In this document: piece by piece, positions 5,613 through 30,898 of the stretch
Layout: the number at the start of each line of letters is the position of its first letter
Position numbering within the stretch: the stretch's first letter is position 1
Virus record (IMG/VR): IMGVR_UViG_3300023100_000001
Coordinates: 1-47,769 of that record
Strand: one strand, 5' to 3'
Source: a virus
Lineage: Duplodnaviria > Caudoviricetes
Length of the DNA stretch: 47,769 bases
Program-made: the position numbers and the translations under genes
Notes under the pieces: generated by a model
What the model saw: the letters and a program-made list of their open reading frames with translations, nothing else
Databases searched by the model: none
Told to the model about the DNA's origin: nothing

Positions 5613-6361
5613 AGTGCGTCAAGTTGAGCTTGTGTAAGTCCTTGTGTTGCTCCGTAAACAGGAGGCTTGCCATGATCGGACCGGTGTCCTTGCGCTGATT
5701 GCGTATTTTTGAATGGTATTCCTAAGTTTTTCCATCCTCCAGCCCAAGAAGCTTCCAGGATTTCAATTGCCCTTTTCTCGTCATTTTTGCTAAGTTCAAT
5801 TAATTGTCGGACATGGTACTCTTGACCACTAGAAGTTTGGGCTGCTCGATTATTACCTAAAATCAGATTTCCGATAAAGAGATTGAAAAGCGATTTTGCT
5901 TTCTCAGAAAATGGAAAATAAATTCCAGAGATTAGGTAAGGTTTCCCGTTAATAAGATTTATCTTATTAATCTCATTATCAGTTACAGTTACATTATCAG
6001 TTACATTATCATTTACATTCACAGCTTCGTTTGCTTCGTTTTGCTTCGAATCTGAAGCATTTGCTTCGTTTGCTTCGTTTTGGTTGTCTTTGCTTCTGGT
6101 TTCTCCACTTGCTAATCCTCCCTGTCTTCCTGCTTCTGATCGCCTTTTTTTAATAACTTCGTATTTTTTTAAGTCTCTTTTTAATTGCGCCTTAATAGGC
6201 TCAAATAATAACCTAAGCATCCTATCTTCTAATGTTGGATCTTCATCATTTACGTAAGCGAGTAAATGTTTCAATAAAATTCCCGCTTCCTCATTGGTCA
6301 ACTCCTTGAATGTACTGATCATATCTGCGTACATCACGAATGATTTTTTATTTTCTGCCAT
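5609..6361 (-). CDS. Phage replication initiator (DUF6291-like N-terminus)
   Basis: KKSFVMYAD...EAGILLKHL N-terminus, RSEAGRQGGLASG and NVNDNV low-complexity linker; directly upstream of dnaB. Confidence 0.8.
   Translation of the reverse strand: MAENKKSFVMYADMISTFKELTNEEAGILLKHLLAYVNDEDPTLEDRMLRLLFEPIKAQLKRDLKKYEVIKKRRSEAGRQGGLASGETRSKDNQNEANEANASDSKQNEANEAVNVNDNVTDNVTVTDNEINKINLINGKPYLISGIYFPFSEKAKSLFNLFIGNLILGNNRAAQTSSGQEYHVRQLIELSKNDEKRAIEILEASWAGGWKNLGIPFKNTQSAQGHRSDHGKPPVYGATQGLTQAQLDAL
5949..6096. repeat. Putative replication origin: iterons plus AT-rich palindrome inside the initiator gene
   Basis: TTAATAAGAT-TT-ATCTTATTAA (5949-5970), CATTATCAG/T repeats (5974-6012), five GCTTCG repeats (6024-6077). 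Confidence 0.65.
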
Positions 6362-6867: not shown

Positions 6868-6964
6868 CAAAGATATAAATTAATTCTATATTAACGGTAA
6901 TATAACGGCATTATAAATATTAAATAATTCACATTTGCAGTTATGCTATAAATACTTATATTTG
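6868..6964. promoter_or_regulatory. Divergent promoter pair with candidate operator repeats
   Basis: TATCTTTG (minus, 6868-6875), TATATTTG (plus, 6957-6964), two TAACGG copies within 6892-6908. Confidence 0.65.
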
Positions 6965-7413: not shown

Positions 7414-8153
7414 TGGTTTTTTGTTTTAAGGTTAATTATTTGGTTGTGTGTCTTAATGCATTCAAATAGATAATTTGCGACGGTTGGATTTACTGCATTT
7501 CCTATGGACCCAACTCGGTGTGACCAATATCGAAACCCATCACCATTTCGAACAGTGCTACACGCTGGTATTTCGTGAATCCTTTTTGACATAGAATGTC
7601 CATCATTCTGATTTGATGTCCACTTTTTAAATATCGAGTTAGGGCTTCCACTTGTGCGAAGGTTGCTTTGTAATCCGATTTGGTGGGAGTAGGCAATAAC
7701 ATAGATCCTTTCTCTCTTATGGGGATATCCAAAAGCGTGGTTAGATATACATTGCCATTCAGCATTATACCCGATTTCGGAAAGGTCGAATAAGATTCGC
7801 TCAAATCCTCGAATAAGCAAAGCTGGGCTGTTTTCAATGATTGCGTACTTTGGTCTAACTTCCCGTATAATTCTAAAATTTTCGGACCACAATCCACTTC
7901 TTTCCCCAGATATTCCTTCCATTTTTCCCGCAACGCTAATGTCCTGACACGGAAATCCTCCACTAATGATGTCCACATATCCGGGGTTGAACATTGTTTT
8001 AATATCTGAGTATTGCTTTGCATTGGGGTACTTCTTTTTTAAAATTATTCTATTATGCTCCTCGAGTTCGCAATTCCACAATGTCTCTATTCCAGATCTG
8101 GCTGCGCCTTCCTCAAATCCTCCTATTCCGGTAAATAATGATCCATGTACCAT
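7410..8153 (-). CDS. DNA cytosine-5 methyltransferase, large (alpha) chain
   Basis: Motifs I SLFTGIGG, IV GGFPCQ, VI IENS, VIII PHKRERIY and X GNAV; no obvious motif IX. Confidence 0.92.
   Translation of the reverse strand: MVHGSLFTGIGGFEEGAARSGIETLWNCELEEHNRIILKKKYPNAKQYSDIKTMFNPGYVDIISGGFPCQDISVAGKMEGISGERSGLWSENFRIIREVRPKYAIIENSPALLIRGFERILFDLSEIGYNAEWQCISNHAFGYPHKRERIYVIAYSHQIGLQSNLRTSGSPNSIFKKWTSNQNDGHSMSKRIHEIPACSTVRNGDGFRYWSHRVGSIGNAVNPTVANYLFECIKTHNQIINLKTKNQ
7502..8023 (-). CDS. Nested alternative-frame ORF, probable C5-MTase small (beta) chain
   Basis: 173-aa ORF wholly inside the MTase gene on the same strand; LLPTP and terminal FEMVMGFDIGHT resembling motif IX. Confidence 0.7.
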   Translation of the reverse strand: MQSNTQILKQCSTPDMWTSLVEDFRVRTLALREKWKEYLGKEVDCGPKILELYGKLDQSTQSLKTAQLCLFEDLSESYSTFPKSGIMLNGNVYLTTLLDIPIREKGSMLLPTPTKSDYKATFAQVEALTRYLKSGHQIRMMDILCQKGFTKYQRVALFEMVMGFDIGHTELGP

Positions 8154-8802: not shown

Positions 8803-9442
8803 TTTGCTTAAGTTTATTGATTAATGTTATTGATTGTTTTATTTCATGTGGCAGCTTCACGCCACCCCTTTTATTATGTTGTGATTGTTCGGATCTTGCA
8901 ACCAGATACAGATTATCAATTTCACAATTCATACTGTCGTTGTCCTTGAATTGCACATTAAATCCTTTTGGAATTGTTCCATTTTGTAGCTCCCAGACAT
9001 ATCTGTGGTATGGCATCCAATTACCGATTGAAACTCTGATGTATTTGTATGCCCTTGGATTATATCCGCTTTTGTTTTCATGCCTAATAGTGATCGTTCC
9101 GTCTTGATCTTTTGCATTGGCCGGAACATTACCTTTTTTAAACATTGTCCTTTTCACCTTTTCGTAAGTTTCATTGGACATTTTTTGCCCTTTATTCTCC
9201 GGAATCCTACCTTTCGAATATCTGTGTGCCGCCCCATCTCTTTTAAGTCTTTCTGCTTGTCTTTGGAATTCAACTTTTTGAGAATATTCTGATTTGCTGA
9301 GATCCAAAAAATGCACCCTGTTGTAAATCGAACATTCAGATCTTTGCATCCATTTTGAAAGAAATTTTGCGCTTAAATTCGGATACCATTCAATCAGTAA
9401 CCTATCTTCGCTGTCAGACCATTTTGTGTTTCTGCCCTTCAT
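8747..9442 (-). CDS. HNH endonuclease family protein
   Basis: FKKGNVPAN, HRYVWELQNGTIPKG...FKDNDSMNCEIDNLYLV. Confidence 0.85.
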   Translation of the reverse strand: MKGRNTKWSDSEDRLLIEWYPNLSAKFLSKWMQRSECSIYNRVHFLDLSKSEYSQKVEFQRQAERLKRDGAAHRYSKGRIPENKGQKMSNETYEKVKRTMFKKGNVPANAKDQDGTITIRHENKSGYNPRAYKYIRVSIGNWMPYHRYVWELQNGTIPKGFNVQFKDNDSMNCEIDNLYLVARSEQSQHNKRGGVKLPHEIKQSITLINKLKQSVIKKQNKRSEQPSFCTA

Positions 9443-9669
9443 TTCCTTTTCCCTTTTATTATCACCTCCCTTGCTACAAAATCCACTGATAATTTATCCG
9501 CCGGTACATGAAATTTTTCATCACCTTTTTGACAGATTACAAGTTCTCCGGAGTGTACAGGTAGATAATCCAATACAGTCACCAGATCACCCTGAGAAGC
9601 ATACTTTGTGCCCTTGCTGTGGGAGATGATGTCTGTTGTTACGTACATTTTAGTTTGCGTGGCTTGCAT
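9439..9669 (-). CDS. Hypothetical SH3-like small protein
   Basis: 76 aa; starts MQATQT like 11393-12427. Confidence 0.7.
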   Translation of the reverse strand: MQATQTKMYVTTDIISHSKGTKYASQGDLVTVLDYLPVHSGELVICQKGDEKFHVPADKLSVDFVAREVIIKGKRK

Positions 9670-9725
9670 TAGAAGTTTGTTTTATATTAAATTTTCAAAT
9701 GTGATGGGTTAAAAAAAGTGATGGG

Positions 9726-10457
9726 TTAGGCCACTTTTTTAAGCATCAATGATTTATTAAAGTCAATCTGAGAAAGCCTTTCATCTTCCATTTTATTTAA
9801 TCGCTCCCGGCACTTGATAATCTTTTCTTTCAGCTTTTCAATGTCAGATTCTTTGCGCTCGATCTCCCATATTTTAAATCTTTCTTCCAATGGCATATGG
9901 TCGAATACATGGAGCTTTCTAAGTTCTTCGCATGCTTCCAGATAATCAGGGCTTTCCATTGTGGTAAATCTACCTGTGTAGAATAATTTGCGCTCTTCGT
10001 CCATGATCATATGTTCCGGAGTATTATTCAAAGAGTAGAATAGACGTGCTTTAGGTTTATCCCAAAGCCACATATAGGCGACTAATTGCCAATAGTAGAC
10101 ATCGGTTAATGAAGCTGTGCCGAATGTGAAAAGCGTATAAGCGGATTTAATATCATAGATTGTATCACCAACTACACAATCACATTCGCCGTGTACAAAC
10201 CCATTATGAATTCGTTTTTTGTTTTTAAGGACAAGTTTGTTGGAGTGAATTGTATTTTGTAGCATCGTTATTCCGTCCTCTTCGGTTAGATTACCCTTTT
10301 CAAAATACTTGGTGGATATGTCTTTACGTATTCCGTAAGTTTCGCCGATAAACATTTCTTTGAGATAAGTATCATTGCCTTGAGTAATCTCACCTCTTGA
10401 GCTCATTATCCTGCCAACTGCAGAAGATCGGAACTCGTAGTTATCATACTTTTGCAT
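9726..10457 (-). CDS. YqaJ/lambda-exonuclease-like recombination nuclease
   Basis: FRSSAVGRIM, KGNLTEE, GECD...YDIKS, YYWQLVAYM; adjacent to recT. Confidence 0.8.
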   Translation of the reverse strand: MQKYDNYEFRSSAVGRIMSSRGEITQGNDTYLKEMFIGETYGIRKDISTKYFEKGNLTEEDGITMLQNTIHSNKLVLKNKKRIHNGFVHGECDCVVGDTIYDIKSAYTLFTFGTASLTDVYYWQLVAYMWLWDKPKARLFYSLNNTPEHMIMDEERKLFYTGRFTTMESPDYLEACEELRKLHVFDHMPLEERFKIWEIERKESDIEKLKEKIIKCRERLNKMEDERLSQIDFNKSLMLKKVA

Positions 10458-11367
10458 ATGCTTCTCTTTTTTGGTTGAATAAATCTTGTTGCCCGTCCGT
10501 CAATTCTACTTCGAACAAGTCAATTTCTGCCTCTCTCAATGAATCTTCGTCAGATATTGCATCAATGAATTTTGTTACCCGGTCCGCTTCTTTAGTTTTT
10601 GCAACTTCCTGGACATCGATCACTTCAACCGAATCCGTATATGTCACATCCATTGTATCAGAGTTGTTGATGACCGCTTGATCAGCTATGTTTGCTTTTT
10701 GCATCTCAATAGATAGTGGAGCGTATTTTGCAAGCAGTAACTTGATGACGGTTTTAAGGGCCATAGAATCAAAATCATCTTTCCATAGACCAAACCCCTT
10801 TTTGAAAGTCTGGCTGTATTTCGTGCCATGCTTTCGGACATCTTCAACTGTTACAAACATGGTTTTTTCAAAGCCATTCATCAGACTGAAGTATGAAGCA
10901 TACCCAATAACCTTATCAGATGTTTTTTTGGTAAAGTCAAATACAAAGCCTGTAAGCGGGTTTTCTTCAACAAGCTGACCTTCATAAATAGGAGTGCCGG
11001 AAATTGTTTTGAATAAACCTGTGCGCTGTGCTAATTGGATATATCCTTTATAACCCATCTGGAATTGCGCAACATTTTTATAAGAGCCGTCTTTTTGTTT
11101 AGATTTATAAGGCACTATGTACGCAAATCCAAGATTGTTATTCAGTGGTAAGTCTAATGTAGCTGCCACTACTGCACTGTGATATACAGATGTCAAGTCT
11201 GCATTTTTTAATAGGTCGTTGGATGCCACAATCTGCAAAACAGATGTTACAAAAGCGGATGCACGCTTTCCAAGTAGTTCTTCAAACTTTTGCCTGACTG
11301 ATATGCCCTGCATAAAGTCTTTCAGGCTCATTGGTTTTTGATCGGTTTTTTGTACTTCGGTACTCAT
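10444..11367 (-). CDS. recT: RecT-family ssDNA annealing recombinase
   Basis: LGFAYIVPY, AQFQMGYKGYIQLAQRTG, WKDDFDSMALKTVIKLLL. Confidence 0.93.
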   Translation of the reverse strand: MSTEVQKTDQKPMSLKDFMQGISVRQKFEELLGKRASAFVTSVLQIVASNDLLKNADLTSVYHSAVVAATLDLPLNNNLGFAYIVPYKSKQKDGSYKNVAQFQMGYKGYIQLAQRTGLFKTISGTPIYEGQLVEENPLTGFVFDFTKKTSDKVIGYASYFSLMNGFEKTMFVTVEDVRKHGTKYSQTFKKGFGLWKDDFDSMALKTVIKLLLAKYAPLSIEMQKANIADQAVINNSDTMDVTYTDSVEVIDVQEVAKTKEADRVTKFIDAISDEDSLREAEIDLFEVELTDGQQDLFNQKREAYAKV

Positions 11368-11392
11368 TAGTTAATATTTTTAATTTGATAGA

Positions 11393-12427
11393 TTAGATTG
11401 CGGATGTGTTTTCTCTGATGTATGTGGTGACTTTGCCTAAAAGTATTCTAGTATTAGCAAGGATTTTTTCTGCATCTTCACTTGACATTGTAGGGAGTTG
11501 TAATGATTCTATTGAAACCGCAAGTGCTTCAAGTTTTGCTTTGTCCGGTGCTGATTTCGCTTTCTTTTCTGCAAGTTGTTTGGCCTTTAATTCTGCGGCT
11601 TCTTTTTCGGATTTTTCCTTTGTCGCTCTTTCCTCTGCATCTTTTTTGGCTTTTAATTCAGCTTCAAGTTTTGCAGATGCTTCACGCTCCGCTTTGAGTT
11701 TCAATTCCGCTTCCTCTCTTTCTTTTCGTGCCTTTTCCTCAGCAACTTTTCTTTCAGATTCTACCTTTGCCCTCTCAGCAGCGATTTCCTTTTCTCTGGC
11801 TTCACGCTCCGCTTTGAGTTTTTCGTTTTCAATTCGCATTCTTTCTCTTTCCTCTGCTACAGCTTTTTCACGTGCTATTCTTTCGGCTTCTGCCTGTTTG
11901 ATCGCATCTTCTTTTTGCTGAAGTTGAAGTTTTGCACCGTTCAATGTTTTTTGATAATCATCTTCTGACATTCTACCAAAGTCAAGACCGAAAGGGACGA
12001 ATTCAGAATAAGCGGATATTTCTGCCTCTCTTTCTGATTTAAGTATTTCTCTTTGTTTTGCTTCTTGGATTTCAGCAAATTTTTCCTGCTCTTCAAGATG
12101 CTTTTCGATAGGAGCGATTAGGTATTCAATTACATTGTACACTCCCTGTACTGCCTTGCCATATCTTAGACTATCCTCTTTTAATTCCTTGCGTTTTTTA
12201 TCAGCACTTACGCGAATGTCTTTCAATGCAAGCCTTGCCTCTCTTGCCATTTTCATTTCACGTGTTTGTGATACATCAGTCACTACAAGTTCATGTGCTT
12301 TGCTTTTCCATGCTTCTGCCTGTTCAAAAAAAGGCAAAAAGGATTCTTTTAATGTTTTTGCCGTTGTGGCTTCCAGATTATTTGATTCTACAACCTGAAT
12401 AAGTTCGTTAGTTTGCGTTGCTTGCAT
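11393..12427 (-). CDS. Long coiled-coil protein upstream of recT
   Basis: E/K/A/R-rich helical 344-aa protein. Confidence 0.8.
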   Translation of the reverse strand: MQATQTNELIQVVESNNLEATTAKTLKESFLPFFEQAEAWKSKAHELVVTDVSQTREMKMAREARLALKDIRVSADKKRKELKEDSLRYGKAVQGVYNVIEYLIAPIEKHLEEQEKFAEIQEAKQREILKSEREAEISAYSEFVPFGLDFGRMSEDDYQKTLNGAKLQLQQKEDAIKQAEAERIAREKAVAEERERMRIENEKLKAEREAREKEIAAERAKVESERKVAEEKARKEREEAELKLKAEREASAKLEAELKAKKDAEERATKEKSEKEAAELKAKQLAEKKAKSAPDKAKLEALAVSIESLQLPTMSSEDAEKILANTRILLGKVTTYIRENTSAI

Positions 12428-12440
12428 TAGTTAATTTTAT

Positions 12441-12686
12441 TTAAAATGTTATTGATAGATTAGATTCTTTATTATTCATCATCAGATCGATTTCCTCCCG
12501 TTCGCATTCTGATAATCTCCATTGATCTATGCCGGATCTCAGGTTATCAAGTTGCTCATATGTGTCGCAGCTTCTGATGGATTTGGCGAGCATTTTGTAC
12601 TTCTCGCTTTTGTGATGAAAATTGTTAATTATTACGTGTGGATCAGGAGCGAATATTGATCCGAATACAGAGAATAGGTCGGTCAT
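12441..12686 (-). CDS. Hypothetical protein
   Basis: 81-aa ORF within the operon. Confidence 0.65.
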   Translation of the reverse strand: MTDLFSVFGSIFAPDPHVIINNFHHKSEKYKMLAKSIRSCDTYEQLDNLRSGIDQWRLSECEREEIDLMMNNKESNLSITF

Positions 12687-12688
12687 GC

Positions 12689-13219
12689 TTACGTCTTTGA
12701 TACAGTTAATAAATTACCCCTTTCGGAGAAGTCAAAATGTAGTTTGTTATTTCGGGTTGCCTTTTCGAAAGTGGCATCAAGTCTTACCCTTGACATCACT
12801 TTCTTTTCTGCAGACCACCCACCGCCCTGATTGGATTTTATGCACCCAACGAAATAAGGCTGTGGTTTAAAAATGAGTGATCCTTTAATTGTGCTTGAAC
12901 CGGCTTTGTCATTGATTTGGATTTGATTAGCCATAGTGAGTTCCAGGTAATTCTTAATGTCGCTTTCAATATCTTCTGAATATTCGAGATAATCCCGAAT
13001 GTCTATTTCCTGTAAATAAGTATCTCCGTTTCGATTTGATGGATCGTCTGGATGTGATAATGGATGATCGATTTCTATTTCCCCGATCTTGTTTTCTGCC
13101 CGCAGATACATTTCAAAATGTTCAAGCGGAATTTCTGTTGACCGGGCATCATCGAAGTTGGAATAATCCACCTCAATAATTTTTCCGTTGATTTCGTGGT
13201 TATGAATGGTTATTTGCAT
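12689..13219 (-). CDS. Hypothetical protein
   Basis: 176-aa ORF; its leader overlaps the antisense RNA candidate. Confidence 0.7.
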   Translation of the reverse strand: MQITIHNHEINGKIIEVDYSNFDDARSTEIPLEHFEMYLRAENKIGEIEIDHPLSHPDDPSNRNGDTYLQEIDIRDYLEYSEDIESDIKNYLELTMANQIQINDKAGSSTIKGSLIFKPQPYFVGCIKSNQGGGWSAEKKVMSRVRLDATFEKATRNNKLHFDFSERGNLLTVSKT

Positions 13220-13230
13220 TATCTTTGCTT

Positions 13231-13289
13231 TTGATAGATTAACTAATTCATTAGTTAATAGAAAGCCTCATTTGCCGTGAGGCTTTTTT
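13231..13289 (+). ncRNA. Putative small antisense RNA (about 58 nt)
   Basis: Plus-strand TATCTTTG -7 box (13220-13227), hairpin ATTAACTAAT-TC-ATTAGTTAAT (13238-13259), terminator AAAGCCTCA-N7-TGAGGCTTT plus T tract (13262-13289). Confidence 0.6.
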
Positions 13290-13500
13290 ATGCCCTCTGC
13301 ATTTTTAGCGGTTGATTGTGTTTGTTCGTCAGGAATTTTATCCTATTCCGGATGTGAGCAAATGCCACCTGATGATTTTCTTTAGGAAGGCTTTCGATTT
13401 GCTTCTGAAGGTTATACATATCATCCAATTTTAAAGCGTGTCTGATCGCATATACTATTTGGTGGAAGTCCATTGGTTTTACTGTTGCTGTAGCTGTCAT
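13288..13500 (-). CDS. Hypothetical protein
   Basis: 70-aa ORF. Confidence 0.65.
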   Translation of the reverse strand: MTATATVKPMDFHQIVYAIRHALKLDDMYNLQKQIESLPKENHQVAFAHIRNRIKFLTNKHNQPLKMQRA

Positions 13501-13521
13501 TATTTATGATGTTTAGATTAT

Positions 13522-13590
13522 TTACTTCTTTTTATCACTCAATACCCAAGGCATTAAGAGTGCGGTTATTAATAGGATTAGGTTTGTCAT
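13522..13590 (-). CDS. Small hydrophobic peptide (22 aa)
   Basis: MTNLILLITALLMPWVLSDKKK, downstream of a hairpin at 13604-13626. Confidence 0.4.
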   Translation of the reverse strand: MTNLILLITALLMPWVLSDKKK

Positions 13591-13666
13591 TTCTTCGAAT
13601 TTAGCGGTAGATATTACCTCTGCCGCCCTTAGTTAAATATGAGTAAGTGTGCCAAGTGGCGTGTGT

Positions 13667-13738
13667 GTGACTGATCCGGGTGTCGCTCCCGTCCAACATC
13701 CTTGTACTTTGGATGCCTGCCTCGTTGGCTTCAGTCTC
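13667..13738 (-). ncRNA. tRNA-like cloverleaf (non-canonical), possible regulatory RNA
   Basis: 72 nt: GAGACTG/CAGTCAC acceptor (one mismatch), GCC-AACGA-GGC, CATCC-AAAGTACAA-GGATG, CGGG-AGCGACA-CCCG. Confidence 0.5.
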
Positions 13739-13961
13739 CCCTTTGTCGTCTTTTCCTCTGTGACTATAATTGCGCCTACCACAATGTCAAATGTGTCACT
13801 TCGCAATTCAGAGTAATAAGATTTTGAGGTTGGTCTCACTTCTTCGTGGTTAGTTGTTATTTCTTTAAAAAGCAGCCTGAATAACTTTTTACCCCGACTG
13901 CTTGGTCTTATTAAGTCGTGCATTCCGATACTCAATAAGAGAACTTCTCTAAATAATATTC

Positions 13962-14168
13962 TTAGTGGCCTCGTTTGGCTTTCACTGTGCGGCTATCCAT
14001 ATATTCGTCTAGCCACTCTTTTTTAAATCTTAGATCTCTCCCTAATCTGCTACTTGTGATCTTATTATTTTTTAATAATGCAGCCATAGTGCTATAGCTG
14101 ATTTTTAAATAATTCATGGCCTCCTCTTTAGTCATAAATGGTATTGGTTCGGCTTTCATATTATTCAT
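13962..14168 (-). CDS. Excisionase/Cro-like HTH protein
   Basis: MTKEEAMNYLKISYSTM...SRLGRDLRFKKEWLDEYM; divergent from CI. Confidence 0.88.
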   Translation of the reverse strand: MNNMKAEPIPFMTKEEAMNYLKISYSTMAALLKNNKITSSRLGRDLRFKKEWLDEYMDSRTVKAKRGH

Positions 14169-14260
14169 TCTTTATATAATTTATTTTAATATGGAATAGT
14201 ATTTGCATCTGCAAAGCCTTACTGCTTTTGTAAAATTGTGCTTGATTGCTGATGACTTGA

Positions 14261-14302
14261 CAAATGTACAATACTATACAATACAAAACTATACTATACT
14301 TA
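14261..14302. promoter_or_regulatory. Early leftward promoter and candidate CI operator
   Basis: TACATTTG (minus, 14261-14268) abutting tandem TATAC/AATAC pentamers. Confidence 0.6.
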
Positions 14303-14324
14303 TTTATTAACTATTAATTAACAA

Positions 14325-14945
14325 ATGGATTTCGATTTAGCAAATTTTATTGAGGAGCGCGGACTGAAGCAAAAGGATATTGTGGATATTTTGAACGTAA
14401 GCAAGGGCGCTGTTTCCAACGTTGTAACGGGTAAGGAAAAAATACCATCAGGATGGGTAGATATTTTACTTTCAGCGGATTTTAGTAATGTTGCCACAAC
14501 AAAAAAAATAGGATATTCTAAAGAACAGCAATTACATTTAAAGCCTAAGCCGTTTTTTGATTATGAGGTATACGGATCTTTTGATACTGTTATTAGCCAC
14601 TTGCTTGTCAATGCAAAGCCTAGCGCAATGTATAATATTCCGTATCTCAATGGATGCGATTGTTATTTAAGGCTTTCCGGGGATAGTATGTATTCTAAAT
14701 ATTGCCACGGTGACATTTTGGCTTTGAAGCGGATTTTTAACTTAACCGATTTTATATTAAATGAAGTTTATGTGGTTGTAACGACAGGTGACCATCAGAA
14801 CACAACAAAATATATTCAGCAAGATCCTAAAAATGAAGATAGATGGCTTTTAGTCGCATATAATCCGAAGGCCGGAGCTCCACAATCAATACCAAAAGAA
14901 AACATACTTGAACTCTGGCAAGTTATGGGGGCGGTTAAAATATAA
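14325..14945 (+). CDS. cI: CI-like repressor (HTH plus S24 autopeptidase)
   Basis: GLKQKDIVDILNVSKGAVSNVVTG HTH; LSGDSM serine, TTKY lysine, LVAYNP. Confidence 0.92.
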   Translation: MDFDLANFIEERGLKQKDIVDILNVSKGAVSNVVTGKEKIPSGWVDILLSADFSNVATTKKIGYSKEQQLHLKPKPFFDYEVYGSFDTVISHLLVNAKPSAMYNIPYLNGCDCYLRLSGDSMYSKYCHGDILALKRIFNLTDFILNEVYVVVTTGDHQNTTKYIQQDPKNEDRWLLVAYNPKAGAPQSIPKENILELWQVMGAVKI

Positions 14946-14973
14946 TTTGTAATTTTGTCAAAATTCGAATATC

Positions 14974-15201
14974 ATGAAAAAAATATTTACTTTCCTTTCA
15001 CTTGTATTACTTATTTCATCATGCGCACCAGAAGGATCTGGTCGTGTAAGTGATGAAATCCCATTTTGCTGGACTTGCTATTTTGATAGTAAAACAGACT
15101 CGTATTCAGAAGATCTCTGCGGGTACACTCAATCAGATATTTACCGTTATGTTCGGAAAAATTCCGTCAATGGCTATTTTGTAGAATGCGAACAAGAATG
15201 A
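14974..15201 (+). CDS. Small lipoprotein (superinfection-exclusion candidate)
   Basis: MKKIFTFLSLVLLISSC lipobox; CWTC plus further Cys; own TAATTTTG box at 14950-14957. Confidence 0.75.
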   Translation: MKKIFTFLSLVLLISSCAPEGSGRVSDEIPFCWTCYFDSKTDSYSEDLCGYTQSDIYRYVRKNSVNGYFVECEQE

Positions 15202-15216
15202 CCATTTCGTTAAGTA

Positions 15217-15431
15217 ATAATGAAAACATAATGAAAGGAATCTTTTGTTTCTGTAAAACCCAATAATATACGCATCTTTAAAAATATAGGGTAATCCCAG
15301 CGGGATCACTAAGGCCTCTTGTGTTTACAAGGGGCCTTTTAGTTTTCATGCGGCTTTGATGTATTTTTCTATACTTTACTATTTTATATTATGTACCTTT
15401 ACAATGAAAATATAATGAAAGAATAATGAAA
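15217..15431. other. attP: attP site: tRNA-3'-end core flanked by arm-type repeats
   Basis: Core AATCCCAGCGGGATCAC (15293-15309); AYAATGAAA at 15217 and 15228, and at 15401, 15412 and 15423 (11-bp period). Confidence 0.85.
15311..15340 (+). terminator. Intrinsic terminator following the tRNA core
   Basis: AAGGCCTCTTGT-GTTT-ACAAGGGGCCTT followed by TT. Confidence 0.8.
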
Positions 15432-15441
15432 ATGTTAAAAA

Positions 15442-16506
15442 GTGAGAATATACCCGTACCTCGACACTAGATTTACAAAGCGCAACGGGCTGTTTACTAT
15501 AAAAATAGTTATTGACAGCCTGGTAGATGGTAAGCAAAAGCAGAAGCACATAAACACCCAGATAGAAATAGAAAAGAAGTATTGGAAAGACGGCAACCTG
15601 TTGAGATCATGCCCTGATTATCATTTTATAAATTCCTTTTTGACAAATAAGCTGGCTGAACTTAGGACACAGCACATTGTATCATTGGCATCAGGCAAGA
15701 CATTATTTGAAGCGATCGACAATAAAAAGCCATCAACATTTGAAGCATTTGTTTTAGACCGGGTCAAATACTATGAGAGTATTGGCAAAAAGCAATATGG
15801 CAATAGGTTATTGAGTGTTTTTAAGGAAAATAACGGAATGCAAGCTGAAGAATACCATAGTTGGTTGATCAAAAAAGGTAATGGACCAAATATGATATTT
15901 AAAAAATTTAAGTATTTGAGGCAGCTTTATGACAAATTTGATCCAAGCGGAAAGAATCCATTTAAAATTACTATCAAGCAGGTCCCGGTAAATAGGGTAA
16001 AACTGTCGAAAGAAGTAATGCACCGGATGGAAGAGATAAAACTTGATGGAACTCTTGACTTTACCAGAGATTTATTTTTATTCTCATATTACTGCAAGGG
16101 AATGAGGTTTCAAAACTGTATAGATGTAAAGAAGGAAGATATCAGGGATGGCCGGATCTATTTTCCAAAAATAAGCAAATCAAATAAACCCATTTCAGTA
16201 AAAATACATCCAAAGCTGCAGGACCTTATAAATAAGTATAAATCAGATGATGAAAACTTATTCCGTCTCTTATCAAATAATGAGGTTAATGTAAATTTAA
16301 AAGGGATTGCCCTTATGCTCGGTATTAAAGAAAAGCTTTCGTTCCATATCGCGCGGCATAGTTTATCTATGAACTTAAAGCGGTCCGGGATTTCTACAGA
16401 TGTTATTTCAGATGTGCTTGGTCACGGCGATACAAAAACTACTCAGGATTACTTAAATGCCCTGGATGATGAATTGCTTGATCCGGCGCTCGACAACTTC
16501 TATTAA
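15442..16506 (+). CDS. int: Tyrosine integrase with N-terminal arm-binding domain
   Basis: GMRF (R), K, FHIARHS, LGHGDTKTTQDY catalytic residues; GTG start. Confidence 0.96.
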   Translation: MRIYPYLDTRFTKRNGLFTIKIVIDSLVDGKQKQKHINTQIEIEKKYWKDGNLLRSCPDYHFINSFLTNKLAELRTQHIVSLASGKTLFEAIDNKKPSTFEAFVLDRVKYYESIGKKQYGNRLLSVFKENNGMQAEEYHSWLIKKGNGPNMIFKKFKYLRQLYDKFDPSGKNPFKITIKQVPVNRVKLSKEVMHRMEEIKLDGTLDFTRDLFLFSYYCKGMRFQNCIDVKKEDIRDGRIYFPKISKSNKPISVKIHPKLQDLINKYKSDDENLFRLLSNNEVNVNLKGIALMLGIKEKLSFHIARHSLSMNLKRSGISTDVISDVLGHGDTKTTQDYLNALDDELLDPALDNFY

Positions 16507-30829: not shown

Positions 30830-30898
30830 CAAAGATATGATTATTTTGGTGATATGAGAAAATTTATTCATATTTTGGTAATATTCTCATTATATTTG
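30830..30898. promoter_or_regulatory. Divergent promoter pair driving the terL-portal operon and the plus-strand block
   Basis: TATCTTTG (minus, 30830-30837), TATATTTG (plus, 30891-30898), TATTTTGGTRATAT at 30842 and 30871, ATGAGAA/TTCTCAT inverted repeat. Confidence 0.7.

Follow-up and report, generated by a model that had tools for sequence, protein, structure and literature searches.

What might a small unit do that carries a predicted promoter, a hairpin and a terminator and points against the early operon of a phage? This question is raised by a viral genome of the Caudoviricetes, from a phage of Bacteroidota-type bacteria (IMG/VR record IMGVR_UViG_3300023100_000001; the whole stretch analysed, 47,769 nucleotides, is referred to as the window), which encodes both a CI-like repressor and an integrase and is thus taken to belong to a temperate phage. 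A sequence-only reading had proposed that the unit specifies a two-box antisense RNA that silences several recombination genes in trans. The boxes, the -7 box, the inverted repeat and the terminator were all located as described in this reading (Table 1). Of the recombination genes, however, recT is the only recognised one; the coiled-coil gene has no known function.

Table 1. Features of the candidate RNA unit, its possible targets and the surrounding genes.
Feature	Position	Strand	Basis and remarks
-7 promoter box, Bacteroidota type, TATCTTTG	13220..13227	+	Abuts start codon of opposite-strand 176-aa gene; unchanged in compost relative
Predicted RNA of ~59 nt: 7 free 5' bases, 9-bp AU hairpin, terminator	13231..13289	+	Folding; five changes in relative fit plus strand
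Box A of RNA	13231..13241	+	First 7 nt unpaired, last 4 within hairpin
Perfect 10-bp inverted repeat, predicted RNA hairpin masking box B	13238..13259	+	Folding, palindrome search
Box B of RNA	13249..13259	+	Complement of 8 nt preceding start codon plus AUG, both targets
Intrinsic terminator	13260..13289	+	Folding; U run overlaps stop codon of 70-aa ORF 13288-13500
7-bp direct repeat, 10-bp period	13197..13213	+	Just upstream of -7 box; possible activator site, lead only
Candidate target site 1, recT start region	11365..11395	-	Box A complement, 9-nt spacer, box B complement ending in ATG
Candidate target site 2, coiled-coil gene start region	12425..12462	-	Box A complement, 16-nt spacer, box B complement ending in ATG
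176-aa orphan gene	12689..13219	-	Leader fully cis-complementary to RNA
81-aa ORF, putative	12441..12686	-	3' end holds box A of target 2
344-aa coiled-coil phage protein	11393..12427	-	Closest clusters in the atlas are phage proteins without a name; DUF1351 as a lead only (fairly high score)
RecT single-strand annealing protein	10444..11367	-	PF03837, E 1e-42; phrog_148
Exonuclease	9726..10457	-	phrog_5715, E 2e-37; overlaps recT stop
CI-like repressor, HTH + S24	14325..14945	+	Divergent from early operon
Integrase	15442..16506		Phage context

The -7 box fits the TAHHTTTG consensus of Bacteroidota promoters, at which transcription starts 4-5 nt downstream (PMC6847099). No TTTG -33 box was found upstream of it, an element that is weak in Bacteroidota generally (PMC6847099). 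A sigma-70 promoter and terminator scan missed the unit; the sigma-70 model is ill-suited to this host type. The predicted RNA folds at -20.7 kcal/mol (z about -6, 0/200 shuffles) into a 9-bp stem capped by 4 loop nucleotides and, 3' of it, a terminator stem of 12 bp and a U run; the perfect 10-bp hairpin proposed before thus exists as an inverted repeat, one of two perfect palindromes of at least 10 bp in the window, but the RNA stem is one pair shorter. The terminator reaches -14.5 on the plus strand versus -11.5 on the minus strand, and the detector scored it as usable in both directions. Opening costs only 0.01 kcal/mol for nucleotides 1-7 of box A, 4.3 for the whole of box A and 6.0 kcal/mol for box B. 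Since box A opens the predicted RNA and box B runs up to the terminator, the whole non-terminator part consists of the target match plus bases that the hairpin requires.

Box A (TTGATAGATTA) has exact plus-strand copies at 11385, 12452 and 13231, and box B (CATTAGTTAAT) at 11365, 12425 and 13249; neither occurs exactly anywhere else. They are the only 11-mers with three same-strand copies within 2 kb, and they are paired within 40 nt at all three sites. In the genome-wide comparison with shuffled sequence that had been called for, a comparable box pair appeared in none of 120 dinucleotide shuffles (60 of the whole genome and 60 in 300-nt blocks), and one local triple in 13 of them. As had been stated, box B is antisense across the start codon at both targets. 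The claim that one target box A lies inside a coding 3' end needs correction: at the recT site, the stop codon of the coiled-coil gene forms the first bases of box A; the other target box A lies inside the 81-aa ORF, which is only putatively coding. The overlapping exonuclease gene is likely to be translationally coupled to recT. The RNA had also been described as cis-antisense to the leader of the 176-aa gene, and this is borne out by full complementarity to positions -12 to -70 of the leader, provided that the early transcript runs through. No family was found for the 176-aa protein, and an atlas search returned nothing usable; close relatives of this gene or of cI were absent from the viral contigs searched (1 and 2 protein clusters only), and matches to annotated phages were confined to short recT and coiled-coil stretches. 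The boxes are absent from the corresponding starts in 86 RecT and coiled-coil relatives, with scattered single-box matches elsewhere, none of them at paired starts. A metagenome scan for the A...B pattern had a sole match (L089), of the same length and sequence context as the window, which was left out of all counts; another scan for this pattern yielded L087 and L088, rejected as chance matches without promoter, hairpin or terminator.

The predicted duplexes amount to -11.4 and -13.6 kcal/mol for recT, -11.2 and -10.8 kcal/mol for the coiled-coil gene and -59.6 for the cis duplex with the leader of the 176-aa gene. Among the 68 starts scored for both boxes together, recT (-26.8) and the coiled-coil gene (-22.9) are followed by the next non-cis start at -17.0, and the remaining ones have a mean of -9.3 (sd 2.6). 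Specific complementarity to both starts is thus supported indirectly: they have the top non-cis scores, and none of 1311 foreign Bacteroidota-type starts reached the score of either. In the cofolding that had been suggested as a check, the pseudoknot-free gains are only -8.1 for recT and -7.6 for the coiled-coil gene, and the cI start, with an imperfect site, reaches -7.2. Because these single-helix gains barely exceed that of the cI start, specificity would rest on the formation of both helices.

A compost metagenome (runs X5 and X2 of study P2, X8 and X9 of study P3) provided one independent relative; X10, with scattered short pieces only, and X1 were left out as relatives. Its unit carries five changes in 59 nt (A>G at 13242, 13250, 13262 and 13280, G>A at 13261) and changes faster than the flanks (5/59 versus 22/843). 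All five changes keep plus-strand pairing and together wreck the minus-strand fold: their cost is +0.9 on the plus and +10.0 on the minus strand, the minus-strand hairpins fall from -16.7 to -6.7, and the terminator has -13.5 on the plus versus -5.8 on the minus strand. This asymmetry was matched by 0.13-0.43% of 3000 random five-change sets, the plus-strand cost alone by 6-13% of them. Strand-asymmetric changes of this kind argue for a real plus-strand RNA. The G at 13242 adds a twelfth pair to both targets while the hairpin is kept by a G.U pair, and the G at 13250 keeps a G.U pair with the U of the AUG and removes the start of a mini-ORF on the sense strand. The boxes of target 2 are unchanged, with a different ORF after the ATG, but at 97% identity all 38 target bases would stay free of changes in about one case in three. 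The co-variation of RNA and target boxes that had been anticipated was not seen in two-sided form: the changes in this one relative are one-sided, with no compensatory target change. The 176-aa gene shows 10 synonymous versus 4 non-synonymous codon changes, and the 81-aa ORF two of each.

A unit of the same promoter–free end–hairpin–terminator layout, but of different sequence, is present in the unrelated prophage L116 of Pedobacter, a soil bacterium. It folds at -28.7 antisense versus -7.9 sense, its first 7 nt open at 0.4 kcal/mol, and it matches its own recT start, with predicted duplexes of -27.5 and -27.8 at this start and at another one; the motif has 3 copies in the 4.9-Mb genome, all inside the prophage. 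In the discovery set, with the window excluded, an antisense terminator plus an antisense TAnnTTTG at a gene start was found near recT in 12/24 cases versus 69/1304, an enrichment that Shine-Dalgarno phages do not show (5/67 versus 62/1501). Held-out loci gave no significant enrichment (2/15 versus 77/1284, p 0.23), and neither did a further, underpowered held-out set (0/2 versus 2/50); a terminator-anchored held-out test whose definition was chosen after seeing the data gave 3/17 antisense versus 4/26 sense. A zone 3 kb upstream of recT, also chosen after seeing the data, gave 10/13 versus 21/297. A significant 5' hairpin is present in just 3 of 17 units, and own downstream starts outscored all foreign starts (pools of 54-60; L127 dropped as a probable non-phage match) in 4 of 11 other phages. 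Searching about 1600 Bacteroidota genomes for RecT added few loci.

We give somewhat more than even credence to a cis-antisense RNA with a layout like that of P22 sar and OOP, which likely also pairs in trans with the starts of the coiled-coil gene and recT. The plus-strand RNA itself is supported indirectly, by the strand-asymmetric changes, the predicted start and the layout shared with other Bacteroidota phages. Since the boxes are the exact complement of two start regions, the RNA is predicted to damp translation. The host housekeeping polymerase would start at or near 13231; full cis pairing would lower translation of the 176-aa gene, and the two 11-13-nt boxes would do so for recT and the coiled-coil gene by pairing in trans with their start regions. 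In a two-step toehold mechanism, the 7 free 5' bases may first anneal to the target box that lies upstream (about -6 kcal/mol); the helix would then grow into the hairpin and release box B, which would cover the AUG. The two helices would be pseudoknot-like and non-colinear, so that box B may pair incompletely or take the place of helix A. Initiation in Bacteroidota relies on an unstructured, A-rich stretch before the AUG and not on a Shine-Dalgarno sequence (PMC6847099), and pairing there would therefore block initiation without Hfq. In a lysogen, the RNA may serve to keep recombination functions quiet when the early operon is leaky or enters with a superinfecting phage, and it would be outrun once the early promoter is fully on.

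The possibility that competes best, which we nevertheless regard as doubtful, is a real RNA whose action is confined to the leader of the 176-aa gene in cis, like that of sar, OOP or DonS; the boxes of recT and of the coiled-coil gene would then be recombination-shuffled copies of a gene-start cassette that match the RNA by shared ancestry only. The cis duplex is indeed far stronger, clear trans matches are missing for most similar units in other phages, and repeated start words exist without units, as 26 of 1219 other starts have at least 15 nt in common with a second start of the same locus. Moreover, the module swap in the compost relative starts exactly at the ATG inside box B, as expected of cassette junctions, and in mRNA sense the locus reads B-ATG-AAT-TAG-A, an empty B-ATG-stop-A cassette; the mini-ORF ATG AAT TAG was rejected as a functional element because its ATG is lost in the relative. 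The order of the boxes, A-B in the RNA and B-A at the targets, had been thought to speak against simple duplication; the swap is real, but duplication plus deletion can yield it. Duplication plus deletion alone, however, explains neither the inverted repeat nor the strand bias. Shared ancestry also sits poorly with two boxes that are exact at both targets although the spacers differ in length (9 versus 16 nt) and sequence, with a match that spans exactly the non-terminator part of the RNA, with a change at 13242 that improves trans pairing, and with L116, where the match between RNA and recT is repeated with another sequence.

That the boxes are instead protein-binding sites, either half-sites of a palindromic DNA operator or start sites of an RNA-binding regulator like SAS/ESAS (PMC3203893), or else sense mRNA elements, with the plus-strand RNA irrelevant, seems unlikely. 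The 22-bp palindrome, half-site near-copies before cI at 14306 and 14317 and the position of box A upstream of three consecutive starts in mRNA sense fit this idea, but in the relative the palindrome loses its symmetry at 13242 in a way that only a plus-strand RNA tolerates, and the minus-strand hairpins collapse. Quite unlikely, too, is an activator-dependent promoter of the pRE type that is aimed at cI for the establishment of lysogeny, with the terminator as an attenuator and the short RNA as a leader product, perhaps of the decision phase only. Lambda pRE overlaps the start of an early gene, and here the promoter likewise points toward cI and overlaps an early gene start; it has no -33 box and is preceded by the direct repeat, of a kind found in about 1% of random 40-nt windows, and the units in L096, L112, L116 and L244 lie a few genes from a repressor-like gene. 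A CII-like regulon search found no second copy of the repeat with up to one mismatch near int or elsewhere, the -33 box is generally weak in Bacteroidota (PMC6847099), and the boxes at the two other starts are left unexplained; such a promoter would, however, be compatible with our preferred reading. A chance origin, in which AT-rich words of start regions coincide with a by-product -7 box and a terminator of the ordinary kind, is very improbable and already disfavoured by the 0/120 shuffles and the strand-biased changes. In its favour, 4-5% of Bacteroidota-type starts have the reverse of TAnnTTTG nearby, CTAATG is often found at the starts of this genome, and random antisense promoters are expected in low-GC genomes (PMC7366714).

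It is tempting to speculate, and we do so tentatively, that temperate Bacteroidota phages share a re-programmable RNA switch: an antisense gene of about 50-80 nt, located downstream of the repressor at a distance of a few genes, would recognise by its free 5' end and masked seed a tag that differs from phage to phage and stands in front of the start codons of recT and other early genes, tag and RNA changing together as between the window and L116. An RNA that changes together with its tag would define a second, RNA-specified immunity group, and any gene that replaces another behind a tagged ATG, as seen in the compost relative, would immediately fall under its control. If trans pairing holds, it shows multi-gene silencing by a phage in a phylum without Shine-Dalgarno sequences or Hfq and assigns one testable role to the tags that recur at gene starts of phages; the 59-nt RNA would then also be a natural toehold repressor on which knock-down tools for Bacteroidota could be built.

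RNA-controlled lysis-lysogeny programmes have been described in a few enterobacterial phages, and in line with the sequence-only reading we found no equivalent described for Bacteroidota phages in the open-access literature. The SAS/ESAS repeats of Cluster K mycobacteriophages are likewise phage-specific, lie just before start codons and are discussed as possible protein or RNA sites; they have 11-19 copies per genome and, in that account, no cognate RNA (PMC3203893), whereas the window has a candidate RNA and two target copies only, not many pre-start copies genome-wide. DonS-type RNAs of Bacteroides are cis-antisense RNAs that repress the overlapped gene in a phylum without Hfq or ProQ, but they belong to host polysaccharide loci, are 78-128 nt long and are described there without trans phage targets (PMC7366714). 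The P4 CI RNA also pairs with two separated sequences of a phage transcript; unlike the unit here, it is processed from its target transcript and causes transcription termination (PMC4825925). The likeness to C4 of P1/P7 that had been drawn is partial: C4, too, is a small phage RNA that binds its target by two elements, of which one covers the ribosome-binding site and the other pairs further upstream, as here at the level of complementarity, and its role in immunity and lysogeny is the proposed analogue (PMC5320573). Yet the unit is not a C4 member, and an Rfam cmscan of 9000-16000 (E<=10) gave no match to C4 or any other family near the gathering score. C4 has about 77 nt and three stem-loops with the elements in the loops and is cut by RNase P from a longer transcript (PMC5320573), whereas the RNA here is a predicted primary transcript of an independent opposite-strand promoter-terminator unit and has two hairpins, with box A at the free 5' end and box B in a stem; its candidate targets are recT and the coiled-coil gene. 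C4 controls an antirepressor operon; the family searches of the neighbours here turned up no antirepressor, and the 176-, 81- and 344-aa proteins are unassigned. Lambda OOP likewise comes from a temperate phage and is encoded, opposite the early operon, by a compact unit of promoter, RNA and terminator, but it overlaps the 3' end of cII and acts through RNase III (PMC12197685; PMC7067206), while the unit here overlaps a leader and matches start codons. No sequence homology to sar or OOP was seen in the Rfam search. P22 sar, a small RNA with its own promoter between genes that is cis-antisense to a translation start and blocks initiation, has the single cis target ant (PMC12197685), whereas two further candidate targets lie 0.8 and 1.9 kb away here. 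With sar and OOP the unit shares a predicted promoter and terminator of its own opposite the early/immunity operon, as judged from the sequence and the strand-biased changes, and full complementarity to part of the overlapped mRNA.

The positions that the sequence-only reading had assigned to the boxes, the -7 box, the hairpin and the terminator all agree with the sequence, and the observation is confirmed. Among all 11-mers, only boxes A and B have three copies on one strand inside 2 kb; they stand together at all three sites, and such a box pair appeared in 0/120 shuffles. As folded, plus-strand 13231-13289 has seven unpaired bases, then an AU hairpin of 9 bp and then the terminator (-20.7 kcal/mol; 0/200 shuffles), with one base between the end of box B and the terminator stem. 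The -7 box lies at -12 to -5 relative to the predicted RNA start, and 4-5 nt separate this box from the start in Bacteroidota promoters (PMC6847099), which would put the 5' end of the RNA on the leading base of box A or on a neighbouring one. Directly upstream of the -7 box, within the first codons of the 176-aa gene, TGGTTAT is repeated with a 10-bp period, as happens in about 1% of random 40-nt windows; no second site was found with up to one mismatch. The position of the promoter resembles that of lambda pRE. No Rfam family matched the unit.

Features of the window and their positions
Feature	Position	Strand
Predicted antisense RNA	13231-13289	+
-7 box	13220-13227	
Box A; box B	13231-13241; 13249-13259	
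recT start (target)	11365-11395	-
Coiled-coil gene start (target)	12425-12462	-
176-aa gene (its leader is the cis target)	12689-13219	-
TGGTTAT repeat	13197-13213	
CI-like repressor, HTH+S24	14325-14945	+
Integrase	15442-16506	
Direct repeats in cI-early promoter interval	14250-14300	
Near-copies of box B target	14306-14327	
Back-to-back promoters	6875-6957; 1825-1880; 30837-30891	
Promoter of Arc-like gene	6957	
Leaderless-looking promoters	30891; 16903	
Perfect 10-bp palindrome	5949-5970	
AACGAAGCAAA repeats	6030-6070	
Nested 173-aa ORF	7502-8023	

The window is an entire virus record of 47,769 nt and carries a terminal repeat. On the minus strand, divergent from the CI-like gene, lie an HTH_17 gene, small ORFs, a 176-aa and an 81-aa ORF, and the genes for a 344-aa coiled-coil protein, RecT, an exonuclease and, later, a DnaB helicase. 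Because the gene starts lack Shine-Dalgarno (SD) motifs and several intergenic TAnnTTTG boxes occupy the expected promoter places, we infer that the host is probably a member of the Bacteroidota; in named genomes, Chitinophagaceae and Sphingobacteriaceae are among the sources of the nearest RecT relatives. Three pairs of TAnnTTTG promoters stand back-to-back, and the promoter of the Arc-like gene opposes the early operon. The short direct repeats TACAATAC/TATACTATAC are candidate CI operators. The sole other perfect 10-bp palindrome lies within a DUF6291 replication gene near the AACGAAGCAAA repeats, a candidate origin, and the 173-aa ORF is nested entirely in a methyltransferase gene on the same strand in another frame.

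A relative that retains 12425-13326 (~97% identity) is present in four compost metagenome runs from two studies; the four amount in essence to a single relative, and one run, X9, has a second variant at one site. In place of the coiled-coil, recT and exonuclease genes (window 9720-12424) it has a 1584-nt module, whose first ORF begins at the same ATG. The swapped box order had been taken as evidence against a simple duplication, an argument weaker than first held: Read in the direction of the mRNA, the coiled-coil gene stands between the boxes as B-ATG...stop-A. At the RNA locus the order is B-ATG-AAT-TAG-A, a copy of the cassette without the gene. The locus could have been born by duplication and deletion of a gene-start cassette, and the module swap, starting exactly at the ATG, is also consistent with cassette shuffling. 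Neither the inverted repeat nor the promoter and terminator framing the boxes nor the strand bias of the relative's changes would follow from such an origin.

This bias concerns five differences in the unit: four are A>G (13242, 13250, 13262, 13280) and one is G>A (13261). They are denser than in the flanks (5/59 vs 22/843); promoter and box A are identical. Read as plus-strand RNA, the altered stem positions pair as G.U or A-U; read as minus-strand RNA, they become A.C mismatches. The fold costs are +0.9 and +10.0, respectively. The same asymmetry arose in 0.13-0.43% of 3000 random five-change sets, and the low plus-strand cost by itself was matched in 6-13%. The strand-biased changes, from one relative, are the best evidence here for selection on a plus-strand RNA, and they argue against both alternatives, a sense-strand hairpin and an operator in the DNA. 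That the unit yields a real plus-strand RNA appears highly probable. No RNA run among the public runs listed contains this DNA, which weighs neither way.

For action in trans, boxes A and B were counted as two separate helices. Among 68 gene starts, the cis leader (-31.8), recT (-26.8) and the coiled-coil gene (-22.9) scored best, followed by a start at -17.0 (mean of the rest, -9.3); in other low-SD, Bacteroidota-type loci, 0/1311 starts scored as high as either target. At both targets the boxes match exactly in spite of spacers of unequal length (9 and 16 nt), a sign that the boxes themselves may be constrained. With 13242G, the relative gains one base pair in box A pairing at both targets, and its 13250G retains a wobble with the U of AUG. 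Its target site at 12425-12462 is identical, yet another ORF follows the ATG. Against action in trans, a stretch of 38 bases without a change is nothing unusual at this identity, and the compensatory target change expected from co-variation was not found in this one relative. Other contigs of the same runs carry coiled-coil and recT relatives at 76-87% identity. Pseudoknot-free cofolding, limited to a single helix, also speaks against trans action: the targets gain -8.1 and -7.6 kcal/mol, little more than an imperfect site at the cI start (-7.2). Ahead of the cI start codon, two tandem sequences resemble the box B target with 1-2 mismatches and lack box A; their one-helix cofold with the RNA is the -7.2 kcal/mol just given. 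On balance, regulation of the coiled-coil gene and recT in trans by the RNA seems slightly favoured.

The free 5' end had been proposed to pair first as a toehold that releases box B. Opening costs nothing for these 7 nt, 4.3 kcal/mol for the whole of box A and 6.0 kcal/mol for box B, and the 7-nt end would gain about -6 kcal/mol with the target. Read 5' to 3', RNA and target present the two boxes in one order, so that both helices together would form a pseudoknot-like complex. We infer that a toehold step is plausible; its exact two-step form, and a timing specific to the lysogen, are less probable than trans regulation itself.

In 95 low-SD loci collected via RecT or coiled-coil relatives, an antisense TAnnTTTG was found near 13/25 starts preceded by an antisense terminator, vs 70/1333 other starts and 3/25 with sense terminators (without the window, 12/24 vs 69/1304); in high-SD loci the counts were 5/67 vs 62/1501. 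Ten of 11 other antisense units lie at most 3 kb upstream of recT, several a few genes away from a repressor-like gene. The enrichment was reproduced neither among 85 low-SD loci held out for the test, most of which had the replication gene as anchor (2/15 vs 77/1284), nor in a small fixed-zone set (0/2); terminator-anchored held-out counts were 3/17 antisense and 4/26 sense (background 4-5%). The layout thus recurs in a subset of recT-type phages; the held-out counts do not show it to be widespread. Own downstream starts outscored all 54-60 foreign starts in 4/11 phages vs 5/47 control starts that reached p<0.05, and 6/12 units vs 203/1219 other starts shared at least 11 nt with another own start; 26 of these 1219 shared at least 15 nt although no unit was visible. 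A significant 5' hairpin was present in 3/17 units only. Cis-antisense action looks like the common core, with trans targeting and toehold as additions in some phages.

Among the fetched loci, L380 (8695-8714) and L244 (near 9140) have antisense terminators with a TTGC(C/A)GT loop as in the window, preceded in L380 by TACTTTGC in place of TAnnTTTG. Antisense terminators also precede early genes near recT in Acinetobacter, Haemophilus and Firmicutes-type phages (L105, L107, L109, L203, L119, L363-L368); the count is 55/1618 high-SD starts.

The clearest analogue is a 78-nt unit of the Pedobacter prophage L116, with free end, hairpin and terminator on the antisense strand only (-28.7 vs -7.9). 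Unrelated in sequence to the window's unit, it has matches at two starts of its own locus, that of recT and one other (duplexes about -27.5 each); its 19-nt motif has three copies in the 4.9-Mb genome, all within the prophage, and is absent from four other genomes. L116 has one colinear box, whereas the window has two swapped boxes. Other phage-specific 14-22-nt repeats occur at gene starts in L116 (9117, 12011), L240 (4342, 5220, 6054), L189, L018 and L198, where no antisense unit was detected in the fetched DNA.

No paper on an antisense RNA of this kind in Bacteroidota phages was found in searches of an open-access library. The layout is like that of P22 sar and lambda OOP, and P1/P7 C4 likewise places two elements on a start region (PMC12197685, PMC5320573, PMC4825925, PMC7067206). 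Start tags whose reader is not known have a precedent in the Cluster K SAS repeats (PMC3203893), and Bacteroides, which lacks Hfq and ProQ, has DonS-type RNAs that are host cis-antisense RNAs (PMC7366714). The unit did not match the C4 model and its fold is different. It would be a new form of phage antisense control, and one that is inexpensive to test.
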